Positions 8,515-60,608 of a DNA stretch of 64,000 bases are shown here, piece after piece (within the stretch, counting starts at the first letter, position 1; each line of letters starts with the position of its first letter). The translations under genes and the position numbers were made by a program. Below the pieces are notes generated by a model. The model saw only the letters and a program-made list of their open reading frames with translations. It was not told where the DNA came from and did not search any database. Source of the DNA: a virus; the IMG/VR virus record IMGVR_UViG_3300045988_108826, one strand, 5' to 3'.

Positions 8515-9351
8515 TCAAAATTCAGGTTCGTTCTTCTTTTCTTCGGATGGCTGAATTACCTCGCCAGTTGATAAGTCAATCGTTTCTCCATTGTTTACTG
8601 ATATTTCTTCGTATTCAGCATCCATAGGTTCTTGAGCCTTTGTTTCTTCTTCACCTTTTACTTCTGAGTTAGTTGCCGCATAAGCCAAATCAGGGGTTGA
8701 GTTGATAATCATGTTGCAACCCGAATTGATTATCGTTTTCATTACCATTTTTTCATCGAATTGTTTTGCGGTAGTCTGTTCTCTGCTTGAAGATTTTGAC
8801 CAAGCGGTCAGAATCATGCGCTTACTCATTATATACAAATCTTGACCACCATCGGCAGTTGGTAGATACATATAAGCTCCAACAAATCCCTTATCCAAGT
8901 TTTCCAAGCATTGTGTATGTTTAACAAGTCTCTTGCAACCGTTTTTAGGGTCTATTTCGTAAATAAACTCATCACCTTCACGTATTACAACTGGGTGTGG
9001 GTCAAAGTTAGGGTAGATACGTTTAACTTGAAGCACTTTGCCAAAGTAAGATTCATGCAAGCATAGTTTATCTCCACGCACAATAAAATAACAAGTCTTG
9101 CGAGAAGCATCTAAACCTTTTACGCTCATCTCAAAGAGTGCAGAAGCAATACTATTCTGTGTACACGCTTCTAATGCAGGTTTGCCATTCTTGTCTTTCA
9201 AATCCTGCAATACAAGCATACTTGCTTTTATAGCGTTTACATATTGATAGTCAGCGGGCATTTTAAATCCTACCTCACACAGACTATTTACTCTTGCAAT
9301 AACACTGTCACCTACATTTGTTTTAACTGTTGCTACTTCTTTTGTTGCCAT
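8515..9351 (-). CDS. recT: RecT-family single-strand annealing protein
   Basis: The size, layout and sequence resemble RecT as I recall it. It lies next to nuclease, SSB and resolvase genes. Confidence 0.65.
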   Translation of the reverse strand: MATKEVATVKTNVGDSVIARVNSLCEVGFKMPADYQYVNAIKASMLVLQDLKDKNGKPALEACTQNSIASALFEMSVKGLDASRKTCYFIVRGDKLCLHESYFGKVLQVKRIYPNFDPHPVVIREGDEFIYEIDPKNGCKRLVKHTQCLENLDKGFVGAYMYLPTADGGQDLYIMSKRMILTAWSKSSSREQTTAKQFDEKMVMKTIINSGCNMIINSTPDLAYAATNSEVKGEEETKAQEPMDAEYEEISVNNGETIDLSTGEVIQPSEEKKNEPEF

Positions 9352-9356
9352 AATAC

Positions 9357-10139
9357 TTAATTATTTAATGATTGTTCTTTAAATTTCCAAATAAATCCTC
9401 CTGCATGATTTCTATCACCACGACAGCAAGCTGTTATCTTGTTGATGTTTGTTACTCTTTGAGCCTCCGATGCAGAATGATATTCTCTAATAAAATTACC
9501 ATTAATATCAAACTGAATAACAGGTTTACATAATCTCGTATGTCTCATTTTGTTAATAAGTTCATCCGATTGTTTGTTCCTTAAAAATCTTTCACGATAA
9601 GATTTATCACTCCAAAGTTTTTTCATTTTGTCAGAGTTCTTTTTTATATTCTCTTCTTTGGAATAATACTCCTTCATTATCTTGCTTATTTTACTTCTAA
9701 ATTCTTTTGTTGTATGAACTTTTCGAGATGATTCCCTTTTGTTTTCGATTGCCAACGGAAATGTATCATTCTCATAATGCGTGCATCTGCGGATATTCTC
9801 GACCCGATTGTCATGCCTAATGCCATTAATATGGTCAATAAAATCCTTTCCATCCTCTTTAGGAAGAAAAGATTCAGCCATAAGTCTATGCACTAAAAAT
9901 CTTTTTAGTTTCTTATCCTTGTGCAGATTTACACAAACGTAGCCACCTTGATTAAGGTTAGTTTTCATAATTTTCTCATGAGATGCGTACTGGTTATGAT
10001 TTCCTCCTTTATTTTTAGGCAAAGATTTCACCCTCCCAAGATTTGATACCATATAACTACCTTCGTAGCCTACTACATCTCTCCATTCCTCGTTAGGAAG
10101 GTTTTCTAAACTTAGATTTTTGTAAATTTCTGTTTCCAT
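9357..10139 (-). CDS. HNH homing endonuclease (NUMOD4 + HNH_3 + IENR1-like)
   Basis: Contains WRDVVGYEGSYMVSNLGRVKSL, IDHINGIRHDNRVENIRRCT, and the C-terminal EAQRVTNINKITACCRGDRNHAGGFIWKF. Confidence 0.85.
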   Translation of the reverse strand: METEIYKNLSLENLPNEEWRDVVGYEGSYMVSNLGRVKSLPKNKGGNHNQYASHEKIMKTNLNQGGYVCVNLHKDKKLKRFLVHRLMAESFLPKEDGKDFIDHINGIRHDNRVENIRRCTHYENDTFPLAIENKRESSRKVHTTKEFRSKISKIMKEYYSKEENIKKNSDKMKKLWSDKSYRERFLRNKQSDELINKMRHTRLCKPVIQFDINGNFIREYHSASEAQRVTNINKITACCRGDRNHAGGFIWKFKEQSLNN

Positions 10140-10177
10140 TTTGTTGGTAATATTAAGTTATGTTGGTAAATTGCGAA

Positions 10178-10235
10178 GTAGGGAAAGGCTACCAACATAC
10201 CCTTTTATCGGCTCATGACTTCCGACTATCCCTAC
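10178..10235 (-). promoter_or_regulatory. Y-shaped leader element, copy A
   Basis: Sense strand: GTAGGGA-TAGTCGG..CCGATAA-AAGG..CCTT-TCCCTAC. A TAACTTTG box lies at 10240-10247 (minus strand). Confidence 0.5.
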
Positions 10236-10255
10236 CCCACAAAGTTACAAAATAT

Positions 10256-15301: not shown

Positions 15302-16414
15302 TTAATTTTTAAGTTTTCTGTTTAATATTTTATCTATTTCATCTATCTGGTCGTACTTAATTTCTATCAGTTTTATTTTATGTTCTTTACAATATTGACG
15401 CAGCCTTTTGTCTCTATCTACTTGAATAGCAAAATCATCTTCAGTACGATGAAAGAAAGGTATTTTTTTATAGTGTTGCACTCCGTTAAATTCTATAATA
15501 ACATTTAGTCGTGGCAAATAAAAATCAGCCTTAATATTATTCCTCGAAAACATTTGTGGGTCAATATTTATGCTATATTGTCTTATATATTCTATTCCCT
15601 TTAAAGTAAGAAAATATTCTATTTTATTCTCTCCCAATGATGTCTTACATTTCGGACACCCCTGTCCATTCAGATGATTATTTGGTGACTGCCAAAACTC
15701 GTCATGCTCAGGACACACTATGCATACTTTCTTTTTTGCACTTATATATTCCACTCTGGTGTAATCATATTTGCATCCGTGTATTAATTTTGACATTTCA
15801 ATAAAATATTCTGTATTTTTAGTTTGTTTTTCTGCCATTGATTTAAATCCGCAAATAGGACAACCTTTCCCTTGTAAGTGATTGTCAGGAGTTTGCCAAA
15901 ATTCGCCATGTATTGGACATAAAATACAAACTTTTGTATTCATGTCTTTGTACTTCACTTTATCATAGATATATTTATCACCATGAACTTTAACTGCTCG
16001 TGCTATGAAAATTTCAGTGGTTATCTTAATTTTACCCTTACAGGCAGGACATTCTTGACCACTTAAATGGTTGCTTGGTGCTTGCCAGAACTCTCCGTGT
16101 ATCGGGCATATTATACAAACTTTAGTTTTATTATCCTTATAATCAACTTTACTATAATCGTATTTCCCATTGTGGATTTTTCTTGCACATTCTATAAATG
16201 ATGTTGTATCTTTTTTTATTTTTCCACCACAATGTGGACATCCACTCCCTCTTAAATGATTAATAGGAGTCTGCCAAAAACTACCATGTTCTTTACATAT
16301 AATTTCAACCTTTGTCGTGCATTTTTCATACACAACTTTAGTATAATCATACCTATCCCCGTGAACTTCTTTTGCTCTCGCAATAAATTCTTCTGTTGTT
16401 AATCTTTTACTCAT
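15302..16414 (-). CDS. Free-standing homing-endonuclease-like protein: 4 Zn-ribbon repeats plus a Vsr/DUF559-like PD-(D/E)xK domain
   Basis: The repeat HGxKYDYxKVxYxxxxxKVxIxCxxHGxFWQxPxxHLxGxGCPxC occurs four times. It is followed by ADFYLPRLNVIIEFNGVQHY. Confidence 0.75.
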   Translation of the reverse strand: MSKRLTTEEFIARAKEVHGDRYDYTKVVYEKCTTKVEIICKEHGSFWQTPINHLRGSGCPHCGGKIKKDTTSFIECARKIHNGKYDYSKVDYKDNKTKVCIICPIHGEFWQAPSNHLSGQECPACKGKIKITTEIFIARAVKVHGDKYIYDKVKYKDMNTKVCILCPIHGEFWQTPDNHLQGKGCPICGFKSMAEKQTKNTEYFIEMSKLIHGCKYDYTRVEYISAKKKVCIVCPEHDEFWQSPNNHLNGQGCPKCKTSLGENKIEYFLTLKGIEYIRQYSINIDPQMFSRNNIKADFYLPRLNVIIEFNGVQHYKKIPFFHRTEDDFAIQVDRDKRLRQYCKEHKIKLIEIKYDQIDEIDKILNRKLKN

Positions 16415-16450
16415 TTTGCTAACTAATTAAATAATGCTAACGAAAGTAAC

Positions 16451-16512
16451 AATAGGGAAGAGCCGTTAGCTTAACCCTTGTCGTTAGGACATGACCCCTA
16501 ACTATCCCTATT
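16451..16512 (-). promoter_or_regulatory. Y-shaped leader element, copy B
   Basis: Sense strand: AATAGGGA-TAGTTAGG..CCTAACGA-AAGGG..CTCT-TCCCTATT. TAnnTTTG-type boxes lie at 16528-16535 and 16547-16554 (minus strand). Confidence 0.5.
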
Positions 16513-16551
16513 ATTTCGTAAAGTTAGCAAAAATAATTCAATTATGCAAAT

Positions 16552-20779: not shown

Positions 20780-21490
20780 TTAATTGATTTTTAATTTTCC
20801 GTTTTCAAGTCGTTCAGCAAATCCTTTTCTATACAGCCTATTCAGCATATTTGTTACTGCTATTTTAGTTGTATGAAATTCTTCTGCTAATTTATATTTA
20901 AAGGTATCAATAGTACCACCGAAATATTCACTTTTATGTTTAAGATAGGAATAAAAGATAAGCAACTCACCTTTCAATCCACTTTCAAGAAGTAAAGGAA
21001 AATATTTTAAATTTTCTACCTTAAAAAGAATTGTGTTTGATTTGTCTAAATATCCGTAAGACCTTAAAAGATAAATACTTAATTCGTAAGACTTTAATGA
21101 TATTCCAATTACTTTTGCTCTTTCTCTGTAAGATGATTTTTGGCCGATTAAATGAATATACATTAAATCACATAATACTATTTTACTATTAGGAGTTAAT
21201 CTCTTATCCCTTAATACATCATAATAAACAACAAACTTATTTACTGATTTATTAGTTAGATTTGCTTTATACTTCCCATGTATCTTTTGATGGCAATTTT
21301 CACAAACAGTCATTAGCAGTTCGTCAGGATAATCCCAATAGTCCTTGCCTTTGATGTAACGAATGTGATGTACGTTTAGTTTGGTATGACTTTTACCACA
21401 TAATTGACACGTGAAATCATCACGCTTCATAATTTCACGACTTCTCTCAACCCATCTTGGGTCGTTCATTTGCTCTTTGTAATCTATCAT
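20780..21490 (-). CDS. HNH nuclease domain plus C-terminal winged-helix-like domain
   Basis: Contains DPRWVERSREIMKRDDFTCQLCGK..LNVHHIRY...VCENCHQKIH. Confidence 0.75.
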   Translation of the reverse strand: MIDYKEQMNDPRWVERSREIMKRDDFTCQLCGKSHTKLNVHHIRYIKGKDYWDYPDELLMTVCENCHQKIHGKYKANLTNKSVNKFVVYYDVLRDKRLTPNSKIVLCDLMYIHLIGQKSSYRERAKVIGISLKSYELSIYLLRSYGYLDKSNTILFKVENLKYFPLLLESGLKGELLIFYSYLKHKSEYFGGTIDTFKYKLAEEFHTTKIAVTNMLNRLYRKGFAERLENGKLKIN

Positions 21491-21530
21491 AATACAACCA
21501 AATTTAATGCAACCAGTTAATAAAACAAAT

Positions 21531-21586
21531 ATAGGAAGAGTGGTTGCTGCTCTTATCGGACAGATAGCTAATAAGTCCTATCCTAT
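21531..21586 (-). promoter_or_regulatory. Y-shaped leader element, copy C
   Basis: Sense strand: ATAGGA-TAGGAC..GTCCGA-AAGAG..CTCT-TCCTAT. Confidence 0.45.
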
Positions 21587-21675
21587 ATTCGGTTGTAAAT
21601 ATAATAAATTACTTTGATATATGCAAATTGTTTTTAAACTTTTAAGCCAAATGGCAAGAAAGATAATTTAAGTTT

Positions 21676-36181: not shown

Positions 36182-36207
36182 TTTCTCAAAAATATTCATT
36201 ATATTTG
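36177..36207 (+). promoter_or_regulatory. Bacteroides-type promoter
   Basis: TTTG (36177-36180), a 19-nt spacer, then TATATTTG (36200-36207). Confidence 0.55.
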
Positions 36208-36222
36208 CGGTAATGTTTAAAG

Positions 36223-36290
36223 TAGTGCGGTAGTGGGAGTAATTAACCCACGAATGAGGGGTTTATCTTGTTCCTTCCCCTTCCGCACTA
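36223..36290 (+). promoter_or_regulatory. Y-shaped leader element, copy D
   Basis: TAGTGCGG-TAGTGGG..CCCACGA-AGGGG..CCCCT-CCGCACTA. Confidence 0.45.
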
Positions 36291-36328
36291 TTTATTTTAA
36301 AGGAACAGGAAATAAATAAGGAACAAGT

Positions 36329-36577
36329 ATGAAAAAAGAAAAGTTAACCTACGCAGAAATGCTAAAAGACCCGAGGTGGCAAAAGAAAAGACTTGAAGTA
36401 ATGCAACGTGACGGATTCAGATGTCAGCATTGTCTTAGAGAAGACAAGGAATTGCAGGTGCACCATTTGTTATATAGAAAAGGAGCTAAACCTTGGGAAT
36501 ATAAAAATGAAGAACTTGTTACTTTATGTAAAAGATGTCACGAATTTGAAGGAGATGCAAAAAAAAGAAACCTATGA
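36329..36577 (+). CDS. Small HNH nuclease
   Basis: Contains DPRWQKKRLEVMQRDGFRCQHC...LQVHHLLY...LCKRCHEFE. It is a paralog of the N-terminus of 20780..21490. Confidence 0.75.
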   Translation: MKKEKLTYAEMLKDPRWQKKRLEVMQRDGFRCQHCLREDKELQVHHLLYRKGAKPWEYKNEELVTLCKRCHEFEGDAKKRNL

Positions 36578-36869
36578 AATCTTTAATGAATTAAAAAACA
36601 CCTTTGCAGAAGAAGGATATTCAAGGGAATTACTTAATTCTTTATTATCTAAACTAACACAAGTTGCAAAATCAGGAACGATGGATGTGGATTTTGATGA
36701 TAAATCTGCTGTTGATTTCTTAAAAGAAGGAATATATGGAGTTCAATACTTTAGTGATATTTTATCAGCTTCACGTCACCGTGTAGATGTACGTGATTTA
36801 GTTGAGCATAATTTCCATAATATGTTAGAAAAATACGATAAGGAGGTTGAATATGGAGAGGCAGACTAA
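36555..36869 (+). CDS. Hypothetical protein
   Basis: The ATG at 36555 lies within the tracked ORF 36408..36869 and overlaps the end of the HNH gene. Confidence 0.55.
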   Translation: MQKKETYEIFNELKNTFAEEGYSRELLNSLLSKLTQVAKSGTMDVDFDDKSAVDFLKEGIYGVQYFSDILSASRHRVDVRDLVEHNFHNMLEKYDKEVEYGEAD

Positions 36870-37794: not shown

Positions 37795-38397
37795 ATGGAA
37801 GAGATTTGGAAAGATGTGGTAGGATGGGAAGGAATTTATAAAGTATCTAATTTAGGAAGAGTACGTTCTTTGGATAGACATGTCAAAGGTAAGATGAGGA
37901 ACGGAAAGAATATCAAAGGAAAAATACTTTTTCAAAGGTATGATAAAGATGGATATTTAACTGTACACTTAAGAGATGCCGACAGTGAAAAGAATAAGCT
38001 GTGTAAGGTTCATAGGATAGTAGCAGAAGCATTTATCCCTAAAATAGAAGGGAAAGATAGTATAGACCATATAAATTCCATACGAGATGATAACCGAGTA
38101 GAGAATTTAAGATGGTGTACAGTTAAAGAAAACGCAAGTTTTCCTATGGCTAAAGAGAACAAAAGCATAGCTACTAAAAATAGCTATGATAAATATCCCA
38201 AATTAAGAAGAATGAGGTCTGATACCTTATCTAAAAATAAGAAGATTAAGATTAAGGTTTATAAGGGAAATGAGTTTTTAGGGTTTTTCGATTCTATTTT
38301 AGATTTTTCTAATAAATACAACTTAATAGCAAGTTCGGTATATGGTTCTTTTAGGAGGAATAGAGATTATAAAGGTTACATATTAGAAAGAGTGTAG
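37795..38397 (+). CDS. HNH homing endonuclease (NUMOD4 + HNH_3)
   Basis: Contains WKDVVGWEGIYKVSNLGRVRSL and IDHINSIRDDNRVENLRWCT. Confidence 0.85.
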   Translation: MEEIWKDVVGWEGIYKVSNLGRVRSLDRHVKGKMRNGKNIKGKILFQRYDKDGYLTVHLRDADSEKNKLCKVHRIVAEAFIPKIEGKDSIDHINSIRDDNRVENLRWCTVKENASFPMAKENKSIATKNSYDKYPKLRRMRSDTLSKNKKIKIKVYKGNEFLGFFDSILDFSNKYNLIASSVYGSFRRNRDYKGYILERV

Positions 38398-45095: not shown

Positions 45096-45169
45096 GGGCA
45101 AAATGGGTGAGTGATTTAGCCAACACTCTGCAAAAGTGTTTTACAGCGGTTTGAATCCGCTTTTGCCCT
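45096..45169 (+). tRNA. tRNA-Cys: tRNA-Cys (anticodon GCA), 74 nt, with some non-canonical positions
   Basis: Acceptor stem GGGCAAA/TTTGCCC; anticodon arm ACACT-CTGCAAA-AGTGT; T arm AGCGG-TTTGAAT-CCGCT; discriminator U73. Against it, position 8 is A and the D-stem has one mismatch. A19/U56 may covary. Confidence 0.65.
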
Positions 45170-45255
45170 CTATGTTTTCATAGATGTTGTTTTTCACCAT
45201 GAGCAGGATTTGTGTTCTCATATTATTACAGTTTAAATTTTTACGCAAAAGGGTT

Positions 45256-56036: not shown

Positions 56037-56095
56037 ATAGGAATATTATAGTAAGTATATATTACTAATTAGGTTATTAGTTAATTTATTCCTAT
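56037..56095 (+). promoter_or_regulatory. Y-shaped leader element, copy E (AT-rich version)
   Basis: ATAGGAAT..TAGTAA-gtatata-TTACTA AATTA-ggttattagt-TAATT..ATTCCTAT. Confidence 0.35.
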
Positions 56096-56135: not shown

Positions 56136-57170
56136 ATGTCTAAAAAATCAACAACAGAAGAATTTATCGAAAAAGCAAGAGCTGTACACGGTGACAAGTA
56201 CGATTACAGCAAAGTTGAATATAAAGGAAACAAAATTAAGGTATGTATAATTTGTCCTATACATGGAGAATTTTGGCAGAGACCAAATGACCATTTAAGT
56301 GGTTATGGATGTAAACTTTGTGCTAACTTTGAGAATGGGGAAAGGTGTAAGAGTAATATTGATGAATTTATTAAAAAAGCCGAACAAATTCATACGGGTA
56401 AATATGATTATTCCAAAGTTGAGTATATAAATAATCATACGAAAGTATGTATTATATGCCCGATTCACGGAGAGTTCTGGCAAATTCCAAATTCACACTT
56501 ATTAGGTCACGGATGCCCATATTGCGCTAACTGTAAAAAGATAGATGAGAATGCGTTTTTAGAAAGGGCTAAAGCTGTTCATGGCGCGAAATACGATTAT
56601 TCTCAGGTTGAATTTGTCGACAGTAAAACGTATGTTAATATAATTTGTTCAAAACATGGTAGTTTTTGGCAAACACCTGAAAGTCATTTAAGAGGAGCAG
56701 GATGTCCTCGTTGTTCTTCTTCTAGGGGAGAGAAGGAGATAGAACGTTTTCTAAATATTTTGGGCGTTAACTTTCAACCTCAATACCAAATAAATCTTGA
56801 ACAAAAAATGTTTTCAAGAAACAACATAAGGGTTGATTTTTATCTACCAAAGTATAGCACTATAATAGAGTTCAATGGGAAGCAGCATTATGAGTATAAT
56901 TCATTTTTCTATAAAAATAGAGATGACTTTGATATACAAGTTGAACGAGATAAAAGATTAAAAGAGTATTGCAAGAACAACAAGATAAATCTTATTATAA
57001 TTAAATATAAAGATATAGATAAAATAGAAAAAATACTTGAAAAAAACATAATTAAGTTAATAAAAGCTAAATGTTTGGATGCTTTTGTTGAAGTTGCCAA
57101 AGATTATGTACCTTTACAACACTATGATAGTTTTATAAAAGATATTAATTTAAAGTTTAAAGACCTATGA
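56136..57170 (+). CDS. Homing-endonuclease-like protein: 3 Zn-ribbon repeats plus a Vsr/DUF559-like nuclease domain (paralog of 15302..16414)
   Basis: It has the same repeat unit as its paralog, followed by VDFYLPKYSTIIEFNGKQHY. Confidence 0.75.
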   Translation: MSKKSTTEEFIEKARAVHGDKYDYSKVEYKGNKIKVCIICPIHGEFWQRPNDHLSGYGCKLCANFENGERCKSNIDEFIKKAEQIHTGKYDYSKVEYINNHTKVCIICPIHGEFWQIPNSHLLGHGCPYCANCKKIDENAFLERAKAVHGAKYDYSQVEFVDSKTYVNIICSKHGSFWQTPESHLRGAGCPRCSSSRGEKEIERFLNILGVNFQPQYQINLEQKMFSRNNIRVDFYLPKYSTIIEFNGKQHYEYNSFFYKNRDDFDIQVERDKRLKEYCKNNKINLIIIKYKDIDKIEKILEKNIIKLIKAKCLDAFVEVAKDYVPLQHYDSFIKDINLKFKDL

Positions 57171-59809: not shown

Positions 59810-60340
59810 TCAAATCACCTCCTTAAACCATTTATAACCATAAGCGGTTTTTAATTTACCGTTCAAAGCTGACGAGATATTGCAACCTTTTACGTTTAAA
59901 CTTTTAGCCGCCTCACATACTCCATTATAATGAATAATATTTCCGTTTTTATCTATAGAATATATTCTTTTCCTTTGGGTAATACCTGCAATTATATGCC
60001 TTCCATTATAGGTGTTATTGTATTTTATATCACACCATTCAAGATTTCCTTTTCTATTATCACTTTTATTCTCGTTTTTATGATTAATAAACTTATAATT
60101 TTCTTTATTATCAATAAATGCTTCTGCTACAAGTCTATGCACTTTACACATCTTTACATGACCTTTTTCGTTTCTAAACATAACGGTAGAATATCCATCT
60201 TTATCTTTGTACAAACGAAGTTCTTTTTCTTTATATAAAACTGTTCTACCCATTGAATCTACCTGCTCATATCTATTCCTTTTTACTTTCCCATTATCAC
60301 TAATACTATATTTAGGGAAATTATCTATAACTTTCCACAT
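59810..60340 (-). CDS. HNH homing endonuclease (NUMOD4 + HNH_3 + IENR1-like)
   Basis: Contains WKVIDNFPKYSISDNGKVK, INHKNENKSDNRKGNLEW and the tail KTAYGYKWFK. Starting at the internal Met avoids overlapping the upstream gene. Confidence 0.8.
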   Translation of the reverse strand: MWKVIDNFPKYSISDNGKVKRNRYEQVDSMGRTVLYKEKELRLYKDKDGYSTVMFRNEKGHVKMCKVHRLVAEAFIDNKENYKFINHKNENKSDNRKGNLEWCDIKYNNTYNGRHIIAGITQRKRIYSIDKNGNIIHYNGVCEAAKSLNVKGCNISSALNGKLKTAYGYKWFKEVI

Positions 60341-60353
60341 ATTTATTACTATA

Positions 60354-60608
60354 TTACACACTTTCACCATTTATTGAATCCAAAATAGCATCAATGTTTC
60401 CGATTTGCTCTAATGTAGCATACTTTCCGTCTGCCTGAGTAGATGTGATAAAACCGCTTACATCAGGTATATCACTTGGTTTAGCCAACTGATTTGTTTC
60501 AATATATTTAGGTACACCACTTCCATCAGAAACATATATTCTTTCTGTACCTTGTATATCACTTACTTTATCCGTAAGTTCACTTAGTTTCTTTCCGTTT
60601 ACTGCCAT
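60354..60608 (-). CDS. Small structural-module protein
   Basis: An 84-aa ORF. Confidence 0.6.
   Translation of the reverse strand: MAVNGKKLSELTDKVSDIQGTERIYVSDGSGVPKYIETNQLAKPSDIPDVSGFITSTQADGKYATLEQIGNIDAILDSINGESV

Follow-up and report, generated by a model that had tools for sequence, protein, structure and literature searches.

Free-standing homing-endonuclease genes rank with the commonest mobile elements of phage genomes; to our knowledge, how they are kept in check has been worked out for a few T-even cases only, each of which relies on an ad hoc hairpin. In T-even phages, hairpins are found at the genes of I-TevI, I-TevII, I-TevIII, segB and mobE, and the homing-endonuclease genes are restrained by sequestration of the ribosome-binding site (RBS) (PMC2988022). 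Anti-Shine-Dalgarno (anti-SD) elements have been described in the aapA3 and hok toxin mRNAs of type I toxin-antitoxin systems and in the 5' cloverleaf of the MS2 maturation gene (PMC6733600), and the 5' leader of HIV-1, which carries a palindromic kissing loop, the DIS, pairs in addition with the region of the start codon (PMC7357161). A catalogue of phage RNA candidates lists more than 10,000 unnamed entries (PMC10690425), and the leader described here may be included among them, uncharacterised.

The window analysed here, the whole stretch of 64,000 nucleotides from IMG/VR virus record IMGVR_UViG_3300045988_108826, contains four copies (A-D) of a three-way junction, which belong to a large phage RNA family that precedes homing-endonuclease genes in many phages. 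No description of the leader motif was found in searches of the literature, and the family is apparently undescribed. Comparison with Rfam 15, which includes hammerhead, twister-sister, pistol, hatchet, HEARO and the riboswitch classes, returned only a tRNA in the window and, among 11 loci, only a group I intron elsewhere in locus L045; an E-value scan of four loci gave chance matches only, none of them on the element's own strand. With neither the gathering nor the E-value scans matching the element, the opinion in an earlier note on this DNA that it is not a known RNA family holds. A hammerhead was also considered; by eye, the junction strands do not fit its core.

A three-way-junction family in front of phage nuclease genes

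Three covariance models (R1, R2 and R3, the latter comprising 73 external sequences) were built from IMG/VR sequences only, with the sequences of the window excluded. Each of these models picks out sites A-D and nothing else in the 128 kb that make up both strands of the window (Table 1). For A, B, C and D, respectively, the scores are 36.5, 40.8, 15.7 and 10.9 bits with R1, 44.5, 48.7, 28.0 and 22.0 bits with R2, and 44.8, 44.2, 28.9 (E-value 2e-5) and 18.5 bits (E-value 0.014) with R3; the opposite strands at these sites reach at most 11.1 bits. The four copies are thus located within 1-2 nt of the places assigned to them before. Single-sequence folding yields the closing stem and two hairpins for A and B (z of -2.7 and -2.5, respectively), is weak for C and gives a different fold for D; the recovery by external models is the stronger evidence for A-D. 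The earlier note had ascribed a shared fold to five copies, which is correct for A-D but not for E. On its own strand, site E is matched by none of the three models, and on the opposite strand only by 8.6-9.6 bits (E-values 1.6-5.7); it lacks the junction GAYA, and its loop has no partner boxes, with duplex energies of 0 to -5 kcal/mol, no better than in cross-locus controls. Site E is accordingly removed from the family. Because its nuclease is a paralogue of the B nuclease (53% identical) and its leader aligns colinearly with the B leader, E is probably a decayed, AT-rich relic of a B-like leader.

Table 1. Positions of the leader parts, promoter boxes and downstream genes at sites A-E of the window (P1, closing stem; P2 and P3, hairpins 1 and 2; L2 and L3, their loops)
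Copy	Feature	Position	Strand	Remark
A	Bacteroidota-type -7 promoter box TAACTTTG	10240..10247	-	4 nt before P1; read directly, gap measured
A	Three-way junction, P1 GUAGGGA/UCCCUAC, with P2 and P3 hairpins	10179..10235	-	Covariance-model matches and fold; R3 span 10179-10234
A	L2 palindrome UCAUGA in loop AAGUCAUGAG	10213..10218	-	
A	L3 anti-box UAUGUUGGUA	10190..10199	-	Duplexes -13.2 and -10.8 kcal/mol
A	Box 1 UACCAACAUA	10159..10168	-	10 nt complementary to L3
A	Box 2 UACCAACA	10142..10149	-	Ends 2 nt before AUG 10139-10137
A	NUMOD4-HNH_3-NUMOD1 endonuclease gene	9357..10139	-	Pfam, PHROGs
B	Promoter-like box TAACTTTA	16519..16526	-	Read directly
B	Three-way junction, P1 AAUAGGGA/UCCCUAUU	16451..16512	-	Covariance-model matches and fold; R3 span 16453-16510
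B	L2 GUCAUG, palindrome CAUG	16490-16493	-	
B	L3 core GCUAACG	16464-16470	-	
B	Box 1 CGUUAGC	16436..16442	-	
B	Box 2 GUUAGC	16418..16423	-	3 nt before AUG at 16414
B	DUF4379 zinc-ribbon endonuclease gene	15302..16414	-	Pfam; PHROG 'HNH endonuclease' and 'homing endonuclease' families
C	Promoter-like box TATATTTA	21596..21603	-	Read directly
C	Three-way junction, P1 AUAGGA/UCCUAU	21531..21586	-	Covariance-model matches; R3 span 21531-21586
C	L2 palindrome UAGCUA	21565-21570	-	
C	L3 GCAACCA	21541-21547	-	
C	Box 1 UGGUUGC	21509..21515	-	
C	Box 2 UGGUUG	21495..21500	-	4 nt before AUG at 21490
C	HNH endonuclease gene, C-terminal wHTH-like region	20780..21490	-	Pfam, PHROGs
D	Promoter box TATATTTG	36200..36207	+	Read directly
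D	Divergent three-way junction, P1 UAGUGCGG/CCGCACUA	36223..36290	+	Covariance-model matches; R3 span 36225-36288
D	L2 palindrome UAAUUA	36240-36245	+	
D	L3 CUUGUUCCUU	36267-36276	+	
D	Box 1 AAGGAACA	36300..36307	+	
D	Box 2 AAGGAACAAG	36318..36327	+	1 nt before AUG at 36329
D	Short HNH endonuclease gene, 82 aa	36329..36577	+	Pfam, PHROGs
E	Candidate fifth copy	56037..56095	+	Unconfirmed; precedes paralogue of the B nuclease (56136-57170)

The alignment of the family rests on a hand-structured seed of seven sequences and realignment guided by the covariance model, used instead of MAFFT with RNAalifold which, when applied to 23 unaligned members, misplaced the gaps in P2 and so found P1 and P3 only. 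Across the 73 distinct sequences, 96.7% of the helix cells are paired, compensatory (double-sided) changes occur at 16 of the 19 pairs, compensatory cells number 357 as against 94 in shuffles, and the covariation score is 0.665 as against 0.06-0.13 with the partners slid. The helices indeed vary yet stay paired, as had been noticed from the window copies. Among the positions previously regarded as fixed, UAG and the GAYA core are conserved family-wide, whereas the GGRA of P1 is constant within one subfamily only and P1 covaries freely across the family. Nearly invariant are UAG and (N)GAYA, as well as the A-U pair that closes P1 and the A-U and G-C/U pairs with which P3 opens, which together give the junction consensus A/UAG ... 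(N)GAYA/AG ... CU/U that is present in A-D on the covariance models. P1 and P3 abut with 0 linker nucleotides, the other junction strands contain 2 and 4 unpaired nucleotides, and phages share one core whether their promoters are of the Bacteroidota or the Bacillota type. A 14-nt hairpin top, GGAAGUCAUGAGCC, is identical in 60 contigs; together with the conserved junction nucleotides, it suggests an extra partner, a protein or a ligand, for which the anti-RBS model discussed below has no need. The base of P2 is a G-U pair in 52 of the 73 sequences and this, along with the low reverse-strand scores, indicates that the leader likely acts as RNA, in the sense strand.

Exact-pattern scans returned 62 matches in the viral collection, about half of them real, and 80 loci in 596 Gb of cellular genomes, of which 79 are chance matches and one, in Lysinibacillus zambalensis, is real. 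The leader is also present in the cultured Bacillus phage vB_BanS-Thrax2 (ON548418, 18482-18539), upstream of an annotated HNH endonuclease. The nuclease assignments of the downstream genes in the window are upheld by Pfam and PHROGs, and neither Pfam nor a sequence search of the PDB identified a catalytic domain in the nucleases of B and E. Among the 66 genes downstream of the leader in the family, there are 18 DUF4379 genes, 18 family matches to HNH types, 6 GIY-YIG and 2 LAGLIDADG genes. Two other NUMOD4-HNH genes in the window (37795-38397 and 59810-60370) are without a leader. In the sister contig L264, which represents an empty site for copy A, the upstream gene is 100% identical and the same promoter box is present, with neither the leader nor the HNH gene, and the sequence identity ends exactly at the 5' end of the leader. 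Judging by this empty site and by the presence of one leader type before four nuclease families, the leader travels with the homing-endonuclease cassette, in agreement with the earlier suggestion of a shared part of mobile endonuclease cassettes.

The 5' position, the L2 palindrome and the L3-box complementarity

The earlier note missed the three most informative features of the element, namely the palindromic L2, the L3-box pairing and the 5'-terminal position in the transcript. The TAnnTTTG-type boxes that it reported upstream of A-D are all present. In nearly all members with sigma-70-type promoters, the -10 box ends 4-8 nt before P1, and in nearly all members with Bacteroidota-type promoters, the -7 box ends 2-9 nt before P1, the exception being D, with about 15 nt; the gaps between promoter and P1 in A-D were checked by hand. 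The element is accordingly predicted to be the 5'-terminal leader of the nuclease mRNA, with transcription starting at P1 or within a few nucleotides of it. Downstream of P1, the U content at +1 to +10 is 47-75%, compared with a background of 29%, and at least five of the first eight nucleotides are U in 44 of 73 members; the tract is poor in copy A (CUUCGCAAUUU). For the majority of members, the positions are +9 to +14 for box 1 and +21 to +32 for box 2, with the AUG lying at +31 to +57 and most often at +34 to +45. Between P1 and box 2, the RNA is unstructured (mean MFE of -1.15 kcal/mol, z of about 0), without the local SD-containing hairpin of the T-even type, the partner being instead the upstream P3 loop. 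The U-rich and then A-rich flanks gave rise to the idea of a fourth hairpin that presents box 1 for a loop-loop kiss; this was rejected on the MFE and z values just given, and because only 5 of 56 members have box 1 in a hairpin loop.

The L2 loop contains a palindrome of at least 4 nt in all 30 loops (shuffle mean 11.1) and one of at least 6 nt in 20 of the 30 (shuffle mean 1.7, maximum 7). There are at least 10 different palindromes across the family, with all hexamers being of the U-NNNN-A form, and between L016 and L025 a C-to-A change is paired with a G-to-U change so that self-complementarity is kept. Some members have a palindrome of 4 nt only, and the one at L224:7597 has none. Unpaired purines flank the palindrome, as in AAG-UCAUGA-G, AG-UAAUUA-A, AA-UUGCAA-A and G-UCAUGA, with C-UGAUCA as an exception, and the 1-3 extra purines are always on the 5' side. 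Several other roles for L2 were considered and rejected. Pairing with the start-codon region is seen in L011 only, and the duplexes of L2 with its own downstream sequence are weak (-2.1 and -3.3 kcal/mol); a mini-ORF starting from the AUG inside UCAUGA is untenable because other palindromes carry no AUG; and a separate palindrome for each cassette of one phage is found in the window, L010 and L034 but fails in L224, where two copies share UCAUGA.

The loop of hairpin 2, L3, is complementary to two downstream boxes that form a direct repeat, the second one at the ribosome-binding site. The matches to box 1 and box 2 are 10 and 8 nt long in A, 7 and 6 nt in both B and C, and 8 and 10 nt in D. 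Two L3-complementary sites of at least 6 nt are present in 64% of own leaders compared with 4% of cross-locus pairs, and L3 forms duplexes of -7.7 and -7.6 kcal/mol with its own boxes as against -3.3 and -4.3 kcal/mol for cross pairs. Box 1 is the stronger partner in 36 members and box 2 in 32. In the window copies, box 2 lies 1-4 nt before the AUG, and in the Bacillota-type copies it overlaps GGAGG. A natural swap is provided by copy A and L082, whose flanks are 99% identical and whose differences are confined to P3/L3 and the downstream leader segment that contains the boxes: L3 and both boxes have changed together, being UAUGUUGGUA with UACCAACA(UA) in A as against UCUGAUGGG with (C)CCAUCAGA in L082. 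Pairing of up to 10 bp between a loop of 12-15 nt and a box cannot form in full with P3 closed, and the geometry is uncertain. Further targets of L3 in trans were considered for the window and dismissed; the excess of 8-mers (TACCAACA, AAGGAACA) amounts to three local copies.

Proposed translational restraint and alternative roles of the leader

The computed features, namely structure, covariation, the palindromic L2, L3-box complementarity and co-variation, position, gene link and membership in the cassette, point to a 5'-terminal, cassette-borne leader that probably throttles translation of the nuclease through the anti-RBS loop L3, possibly with the involvement of a kissing dimer. Under this model, transcription would start at or near P1, and the first 55-65 nt would fold into the three-way junction, followed in turn by about 10 nt of U-rich spacer, the first box, an A-rich stretch, the second box and the AUG. 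L3 would be an anti-RBS: its pairing with box 2 would cover the Shine-Dalgarno sequence in Bacillota-type phages and, in those of the Bacteroidota type, the 6-10 nt that directly precede the AUG, so that binding of the 30S subunit would be blocked and a potentially toxic DNA-cutting enzyme kept low. The earlier proposal of a cis-regulatory leader that limits nuclease expression gains from the position before the start codon and from the L3-box 2 complementarity, with the effect itself remaining putative, and is compatible with the cassette reading; each is supported by computed evidence. Box 1 would be an equally good, non-productive partner of L3, and two states can therefore be envisaged, one with the RBS free (L3 on box 1) and the other with the RBS covered (L3 on box 2). 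Since the two boxes are of about equal strength and there is a single L3 per RNA, pairing in cis alone would repress only partly. The palindromic L2, in its DIS-like setting, would most likely allow two leaders to kiss, and the kiss would supply a second L3, such that both boxes of one mRNA are occupied. Repression of translation by the pairing, the formation of RNA dimers and the factor that sets the balance of the two states are all inferred. The fullest version of this model is a self-addressed dimer switch, in which L2 kisses, L3 sits on the box of the partner and translation falls as the nuclease's own transcript rises; it is put forward tentatively, as possible but doubtful. The partners could be two mRNAs of the same nuclease or an mRNA and a released leader fragment, and the variable L3 and boxes would serve as a private address that prevents cross-talk among the cassettes of one phage.

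The leader could instead be a riboswitch-like sensor, the junction core of which binds a small molecule, an ion or a universal protein (a ribosomal protein, RNase or RNA polymerase), with the ligand deciding the access of L3 to box 2 and with L3, box 1 and box 2 acting as anti-SD, anti-anti-SD and SD, respectively. The near-invariance of the junction nucleotides amid three variable helices, the persistence of the core between phages with the two promoter types and the two mutually exclusive L3 partners of equal strength would all fit the logic of a switch. The pocket is nevertheless small, given the 0 unpaired nucleotides between P3 and P1 and the 2 and 4 in the other strands, the gene context hints at no ligand because nucleases are not metabolic enzymes, none of the riboswitch models of Rfam 15 matches, and the palindromic L2 is left without a role, so that a sensor appears unlikely. 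At least as unlikely is an attenuator, in which P1 and the U-rich tract would terminate part of the transcripts, and the released leader of about 70 nt would dock through an L2 kiss and fill the second box with its L3, repression scaling with the amount of leader. This scheme accounts for the two boxes per L3, the self-complementary L2 and the variable address of L3 and boxes, and draws on the U enrichment right after P1; however, a branched three-way junction would be an unusual terminator, the tract of copy A is poor in U, and the richness in U and A may merely keep the spacer unstructured.

In phages of both host phyla, P1 begins no more than a few nucleotides from the predicted start site, as would also be expected of a 5'-end stabiliser, with a base-paired triphosphate end that shields a weakly translated mRNA from 5'-end-dependent RNases and the remaining features being secondary. 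For such a purpose, a simple hairpin would suffice, and the conserved junction, the palindromic L2 and the L3-box complementarity and co-variation would go unexplained, which makes this role quite improbable. Finally, the element might act at the level of DNA, the dyad-symmetric P2 being an operator immediately behind the promoter and the three copies of the box, one of them inverted, binding the nuclease or a repressor. P2 and its palindromic loop form an almost perfect inverted repeat, located at about +10 to +35, and autorepression of a homing endonuclease is known, that of I-TevI at its own promoter (PMC2988022). This reading is very improbable given that the stems preserve pairing rather than sequence, the frequent G-U at the P2 base breaks the symmetry of the DNA, the extra purines are found on one side of the palindrome only, the models score the sense strand alone, and the boxes overlap GGAGG in Bacillota-type members. 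The preferred reading is that of an anti-RBS leader. If this is true, one conserved, portable leader would, in phages of Bacteroidota and Bacillota, offer a general solution to restraint for HNH, GIY-YIG, LAGLIDADG and zinc-ribbon nucleases alike, and the leader could become a new annotation marker for nuclease cassettes. The change of the L3/box address with the rest untouched, as in copy A and L082, suggests a modular, re-programmable translational governor. An RNA of about 60 nt with a 40-nt tail combines three helices that covary, a palindromic loop of changing sequence and a loop-box pair that can be programmed. As far as we know, natural functional RNA homodimers are rare, and the dimer switch, if true, would be the first natural bacterial or phage mRNA leader regulated by kissing-loop homodimerisation and a portable control module common to homing-endonuclease cassettes across nuclease families and host phyla. 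The cultured phage vB_BanS-Thrax2 provides an accessible test system.

Comparison with described RNAs

Several described RNAs share individual traits with this leader. The HEARO (omega) RNA of IscB is likewise a structured RNA located beside HNH nuclease genes in mobile elements; it is, however, a guide RNA of more than 200 nt that is associated with a single RuvC-HNH family, whereas here a 60-nt leader is common to unrelated nuclease folds. Three-way-junction riboswitch aptamers, such as the purine class, resemble the leader in size, in the P1-P2-P3 arrangement with conserved junction nucleotides and variable helices, and as 5' leaders that control an RBS, but the two loops of the leader do not pair together: L2 would pair with itself and L3 with the downstream mRNA. 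The HIV-1 DIS and other palindromic kissing loops resemble L2 in having an apical 6-nt palindrome with unpaired purine flanks, which varies in sequence and is still palindromic, and the DIS, too, is part of a 5' leader with pairing to the start-codon region, as proposed here for L3 and box 2; the DIS serves the packaging of an RNA virus genome, in contrast to the short mRNA leader of a DNA phage, for which the dimer is predicted from sequence. In the aapA3, hok and MS2 mRNAs, as in the proposed mechanism, the SD of a harmful gene is masked by complementary sequence further upstream in the gene's own leader, by way of alternative or successive pairings. These mRNAs employ several anti-SD segments for one SD, as opposed to one anti-SD loop for two SD-like boxes here, and have no conserved junction core, self-complementary loop or link to mobile nucleases.

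The T-even hairpins are similar in that an RNA structure covers the RBS of a phage homing-endonuclease gene, as it would here. They are simple and local, without a shared sequence or fold, in contrast to the conserved three-way junction that, 40-60 nt upstream, would lend its loop to the RBS. The T-even hairpins enclose a late promoter, and transcripts made late lack the inhibitory arm and escape repression, whereas here a promoter of either type precedes the whole element. Unlike the T-even hairpins, the leader has a second, putative decoy box and a palindromic loop, and one fold serves at least four nuclease families in phages of two host phyla.

Leader copies in the window and the RNA family

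The window is a fragment of a phage genome; the closest matches of its 2633-aa tail protein are proteins of Bacteroides phages and of phage contigs from the human gut, and no close DNA relative of the window was found among GenBank phages. The five segments that the earlier note placed before nuclease genes were read directly at those positions, and Pfam and PHROG families agree that the genes behind all of them encode endonucleases. The DUF4379 zinc-ribbon proteins of B and E match the PHROG families 'HNH endonuclease', 'homing endonuclease' and 'intron encoded nuclease'. In the B nuclease, the C-terminal 116 aa (15302-15652, -), whose putative catalytic fold was earlier called 'Vsr-like', show no Pfam or PDB sequence match and are common to E and the PHROG 'homing endonuclease' families.

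Leader copies and associated features in the window (P1, closing stem; L2 and L3, loops of hairpins P2 and P3; boxes 1 and 2, downstream direct repeats complementary to L3; R1-R3, successive covariance models)
Copy	Element	Nuclease gene	Nuclease	Promoter box (nt to P1)	Tract after P1	L2 palindrome	L3	Box 1	Box 2	R1/R2/R3 bits
A	10178-10235 (-)	9357-10139 (-)	NUMOD4-HNH_3-NUMOD1	TAACTTTG (4)	10169-10178	UCAUGA	UAUGUUGGUA	UACCAACAUA	UACCAACA	36.5/44.5/44.8
B	16451-16512 (-)	15302-16414 (-)	DUF4379 zinc ribbon	TAACTTTA (6)	16441-16450	CAUG	GCUAACG	CGUUAGC	GUUAGC	40.8/48.7/44.2
C	21531-21586 (-)	20780-21490 (-)	HNH	TATATTTA (9)	21521-21530	UAGCUA	GCAACCA	UGGUUGC	UGGUUG	15.7/28.0/28.9
D	36223-36290 (+)	36329-36577 (+)	HNH	TATATTTG (15; P1 longer)	36291-36299	UAAUUA	CUUGUUCCUU	AAGGAACA	AAGGAACAAG	10.9/22.0/18.5
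E	56037-56095 (+)	56136-57170 (+)	DUF4379 zinc ribbon							

In single-sequence folds, the proposed closing stem plus two hairpins is recovered for A (z -2.7) and B (z -2.5) but is weak in C, different in D and unconvincing in the AT-rich E. Scanning IMG/VR viral contigs with an exact pattern (TAGGGATAG..GAYAA..TCCCTA) yielded 62 loci, about half of which have the same three-way junction, with both hairpin stems differing in sequence. A hand-structured seed of seven of these loci gave model R1; searching and realigning twice then produced R2 (33 sequences) and R3 (73 sequences), with window sequences included in none of them. With filters disabled and both window strands scanned, all three models find four sites, A to D, and nothing else; the opposite strands at these sites score at most 11.1 bits.

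The claim that the helices covary is borne out by the 73-sequence alignment, in which 96.7% of the pair cells are standard, 16 of the 19 pairs show both-sided changes, most pairs have 4-6 pair types, and compensatory cells number 357 versus 94 in column shuffles. Fitting this alignment to the model biases it toward the structure, yet the covariation score of 0.665 is far from the 0.06-0.13 obtained with partners slid by 1-3 columns; the picture is the same for the 33-sequence set. A second scan left P1 unconstrained and used the hairpin top GGAAGUCAUGAGCC as its anchor; it yielded 60 loci (56 new), among which P1 takes many unrelated sequences (e.g., CACAAGA/UCUUGUG, GGCGGA/UCCGCC and ACAAUAAA/UUUAUUGU). 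This makes P1 a true covarying helix; the GGRA motif previously considered fixed is constant within one subfamily but not across the family. Sequence conservation falls on the A-U pair that closes P1, on UAG and (N)GAYA, and on the A-U and G-C/U pairs that open P3. Of the 73 members, 52 have G-U and 21 have G-C at the base of P2, which points to a sense-strand RNA.

P1 starts 4-8 nt after the end of the -10 box in nearly all members that have sigma-70-type promoters (TTGACA-17-TATAAT); in nearly all Bacteroidota-type members, it starts 2-9 nt after the end of TAnnTTTG, the consensus of Bacteroides promoters. Boxes of the latter type are present upstream of A-D, as noted earlier, 4-15 nt before P1. 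The leader element is the predicted 5' end of the transcript, a feature overlooked by the earlier note, and this end carries a strand-specific, covarying three-way junction. It is almost certain that these leaders form a real structured RNA family specific to the leaders of homing-endonuclease genes.

The count of five copies holds for A-D, which match R1-R3, but not for E. The E nuclease is a paralogue of the B nuclease (53-54% identical), and the region upstream of its gene can be aligned colinearly with the B leader. Yet in E the UAG and GAYA strands of the junction are degraded, P3 is doubtful, the loop is without partner boxes (duplex energies of 0 kcal/mol for the zone of box 1 and -2.4 to -5.0 for that of box 2), and no model matches E on its own strand. 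Given the degraded junction, missing pairing and missing match, E is read as a probable decayed relic rather than a fifth functional copy.

The loops and their partners

Both hairpin loops have properties that the earlier note overlooked. L3 is complementary to two downstream direct-repeat boxes: among 28 non-redundant leaders, two separate L3 matches of at least 6 nt are found in 64% with the leader's own tail versus 4% with the tail of another locus. The mean L3 duplex energies are -7.7 and -7.6 kcal/mol with own tails and -3.3 and -4.3 with foreign tails; duplexes of L2 with the tail reach only -2.1 and -3.3 kcal/mol. In most members, box 1 lies at +9 to +14 and box 2 at +21 to +32 after P1, and the start codon follows within +31 to +57 (usually +34 to +45). 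The AUG comes 1-4 nt after the end of box 2 in the window copies, and box 2 overlaps GGAGG in the Bacillota-type members.

The best single evidence for this complementarity is a natural swap in IMGVR_UViG_3300045988_110372 (L082), which shares 99% identity with the window over the stretch running from the upstream gene through P2, with identity resuming at the AUG for ~60 nt. In this contig, L3 is changed to UCUGAUGGG and both boxes are changed alongside, to CCCAUCAGA and CCAUCAGA; the nuclease body is 32% identical to the A nuclease. The first 60 nt (~20 codons) of the A nuclease gene (10080-10139, -) are identical to positions 1501-1560 of L082, and conserved and swapped patches form a mosaic around the start codon, where the conserved patch may reflect a recombination joint or contribute to what the RNA does.

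L2 is self-complementary, with a palindrome of at least 4 nt in 30 of 30 non-redundant members and of at least 6 nt in 20 of 30, versus means of 11.1 and 1.7 and maxima of 20 and 7 in 2000 shuffles of the loops. The palindromes vary (UCAUGA, UAAUUA, UGAUCA, UCGCGA, UUGCAA, UGUACA, UAGCUA, UUCGAA, GGCC, UGCA, AGCU). Between the close relatives L016 and L025, C-to-A and G-to-U changes convert UCAUGA to UAAUUA, with self-complementarity kept, and one member has a G-U-containing version, UAAUUG. All the hexamers have the form U-NNNN-A, that of 16 of the 64 possible hexamer palindromes, which points to a constraint on L2 beyond self-complementarity. The palindrome is flanked by 1-3 unpaired bases, mostly purines, on the 5' side and 0-1 on the 3' side, as in the HIV-1 dimerisation loop (PMC7357161).

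Gene association and mobility

Among the 66 proteins encoded directly downstream of family members, DUF4379 zinc ribbons are present in 18, GIY-YIG in six and LAGLIDADG in two; HNH-type domains give 18 family matches (HNH 8, HNH_3 5, HNH_5 3, HNH_2 2), with more than one match per protein possible, and other proteins contain NUMOD1/3/4 or homing-endonuclease repeats. In a search from the protein side, 18 relatives of the B nuclease included at least seven with a detectable element just upstream; a divergent one is seen by eye at another such relative, L070. The leader family is viral; 596 Gb of cellular genomes, scanned with the exact pattern used for IMG/VR, yielded a single real match among the 80 loci listed, in Lysinibacillus zambalensis. 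In the cultured Bacillus phage vB_BanS-Thrax2, the element lies in a gap without annotation, ahead of a gene annotated as an HNH endonuclease; TTGACA-17-TATACT stands 5 nt before P1, and the boxes are UGAGUUGG and GAGUUGGU. Phage KoopaTroopa gives a similar BLAST match.

The suggestion that the element is a shared part of mobile cassettes is upheld by IMGVR_UViG_3300045988_111972 (L264). This contig shares the 133-aa upstream gene (100% identical) and the TAACTTT box with the window, and the identity breaks off precisely at the leader's first nucleotide; the next gene comes immediately after, with neither the leader nor the HNH gene present. That next gene is not a clear homologue of the next gene in the window, so the insertion boundary is defined at the 5' side only. 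The element is not obligatory for the NUMOD4-HNH genes of the window: two more (37795-38397, +; 59810-60370, -) have no leader and abut or overlap the preceding ORF.

Several other loci are of interest. In L045, a group I intron core (RF00028, 50.1 bits; 9045-9296) lies ~140 nt upstream of a family member (9439-9499) that has its own TTGACA/TATAAT promoter and box 1; no intact ORF is found within ~130 nt downstream, a 278-aa ORF starts at +138, and the locus may be a degraded intron-associated endonuclease cassette. Members in L034 (164-222 and 2408-2463) and L224 (6272-6324) start right after tRNA-like 3' ends (GGTTCGAATCC...), and these cassettes therefore sit between tRNA genes, as does segB of T4. 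In the window, a tRNA-Cys (GCA) gene (45096-45170, +) is the sole Rfam or ARAGORN match. A 153-aa GTG ORF (36408-36869, +) without a family match overlaps the short HNH gene of D (82 aa) in another frame; the larger ORFs that follow may be packaging genes, and D may be a terminase-associated HNH rather than a homing enzyme. At the window edge, an ORF with a NUMOD3 motif (40-489, +) suggests the C-terminal part of a GIY-YIG-type nuclease.

Possible functions and relation to known leaders

Pairing of L3 with box 2 would block initiation. Box 1 pairs with L3 as well as box 2 does (stronger in 36 members, weaker in 32) and is most readily understood as an alternative, non-productive partner that would give the leader open and closed states. 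With less confidence, L2 could bring in a second L3 by dimerisation, such that both boxes would be covered and repression tied to transcript concentration. Control of translation through L3:box 2 is somewhat probable; kissing dimers in vivo are a tentative proposition.

The G-U pairs, strand specificity and asymmetric loop argue against DNA-level operators. The junction may instead sense a ligand or a protein, since its conserved core and a 14-nt hairpin top that is identical across 60 contigs hint at a partner. The conserved tract directly 3' of P1 is U-rich (47-75% U over the first 10 nt versus 29% background, 73 members) and suggests an attenuator from which the leader is set free as a small RNA; together with the A-rich spacer between the boxes, it could also act as a weak terminator or as a site for S1 or Hfq, or serve to keep unstructured a tail that, apart from the L3 pairing, has no structure. 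A simple 5'-end stabiliser is another rival. The sensor, attenuator and stabiliser are all compatible with translational control through L3 and box 2.

No Rfam 15 family matches the element, in line with the earlier view that it is not a known RNA family, and full-text literature searches found no description of the motif, although a bulk catalogue of phage RNA candidates (PMC10690425) may contain it without a name. The conserved portable architecture, variable 'address' and DIS-like loop of the element have no counterpart described in phage or bacterial mRNAs. The variant is new, and its predicted function, an RBS-masking leader of a harmful gene, is of a kind already known: masking by L3:box 2 would follow the same logic as the RBS hairpins that block initiation at I-TevI, segB and mobE (PMC2988022) and the anti-SD elements carried by toxin mRNAs (PMC6733600).
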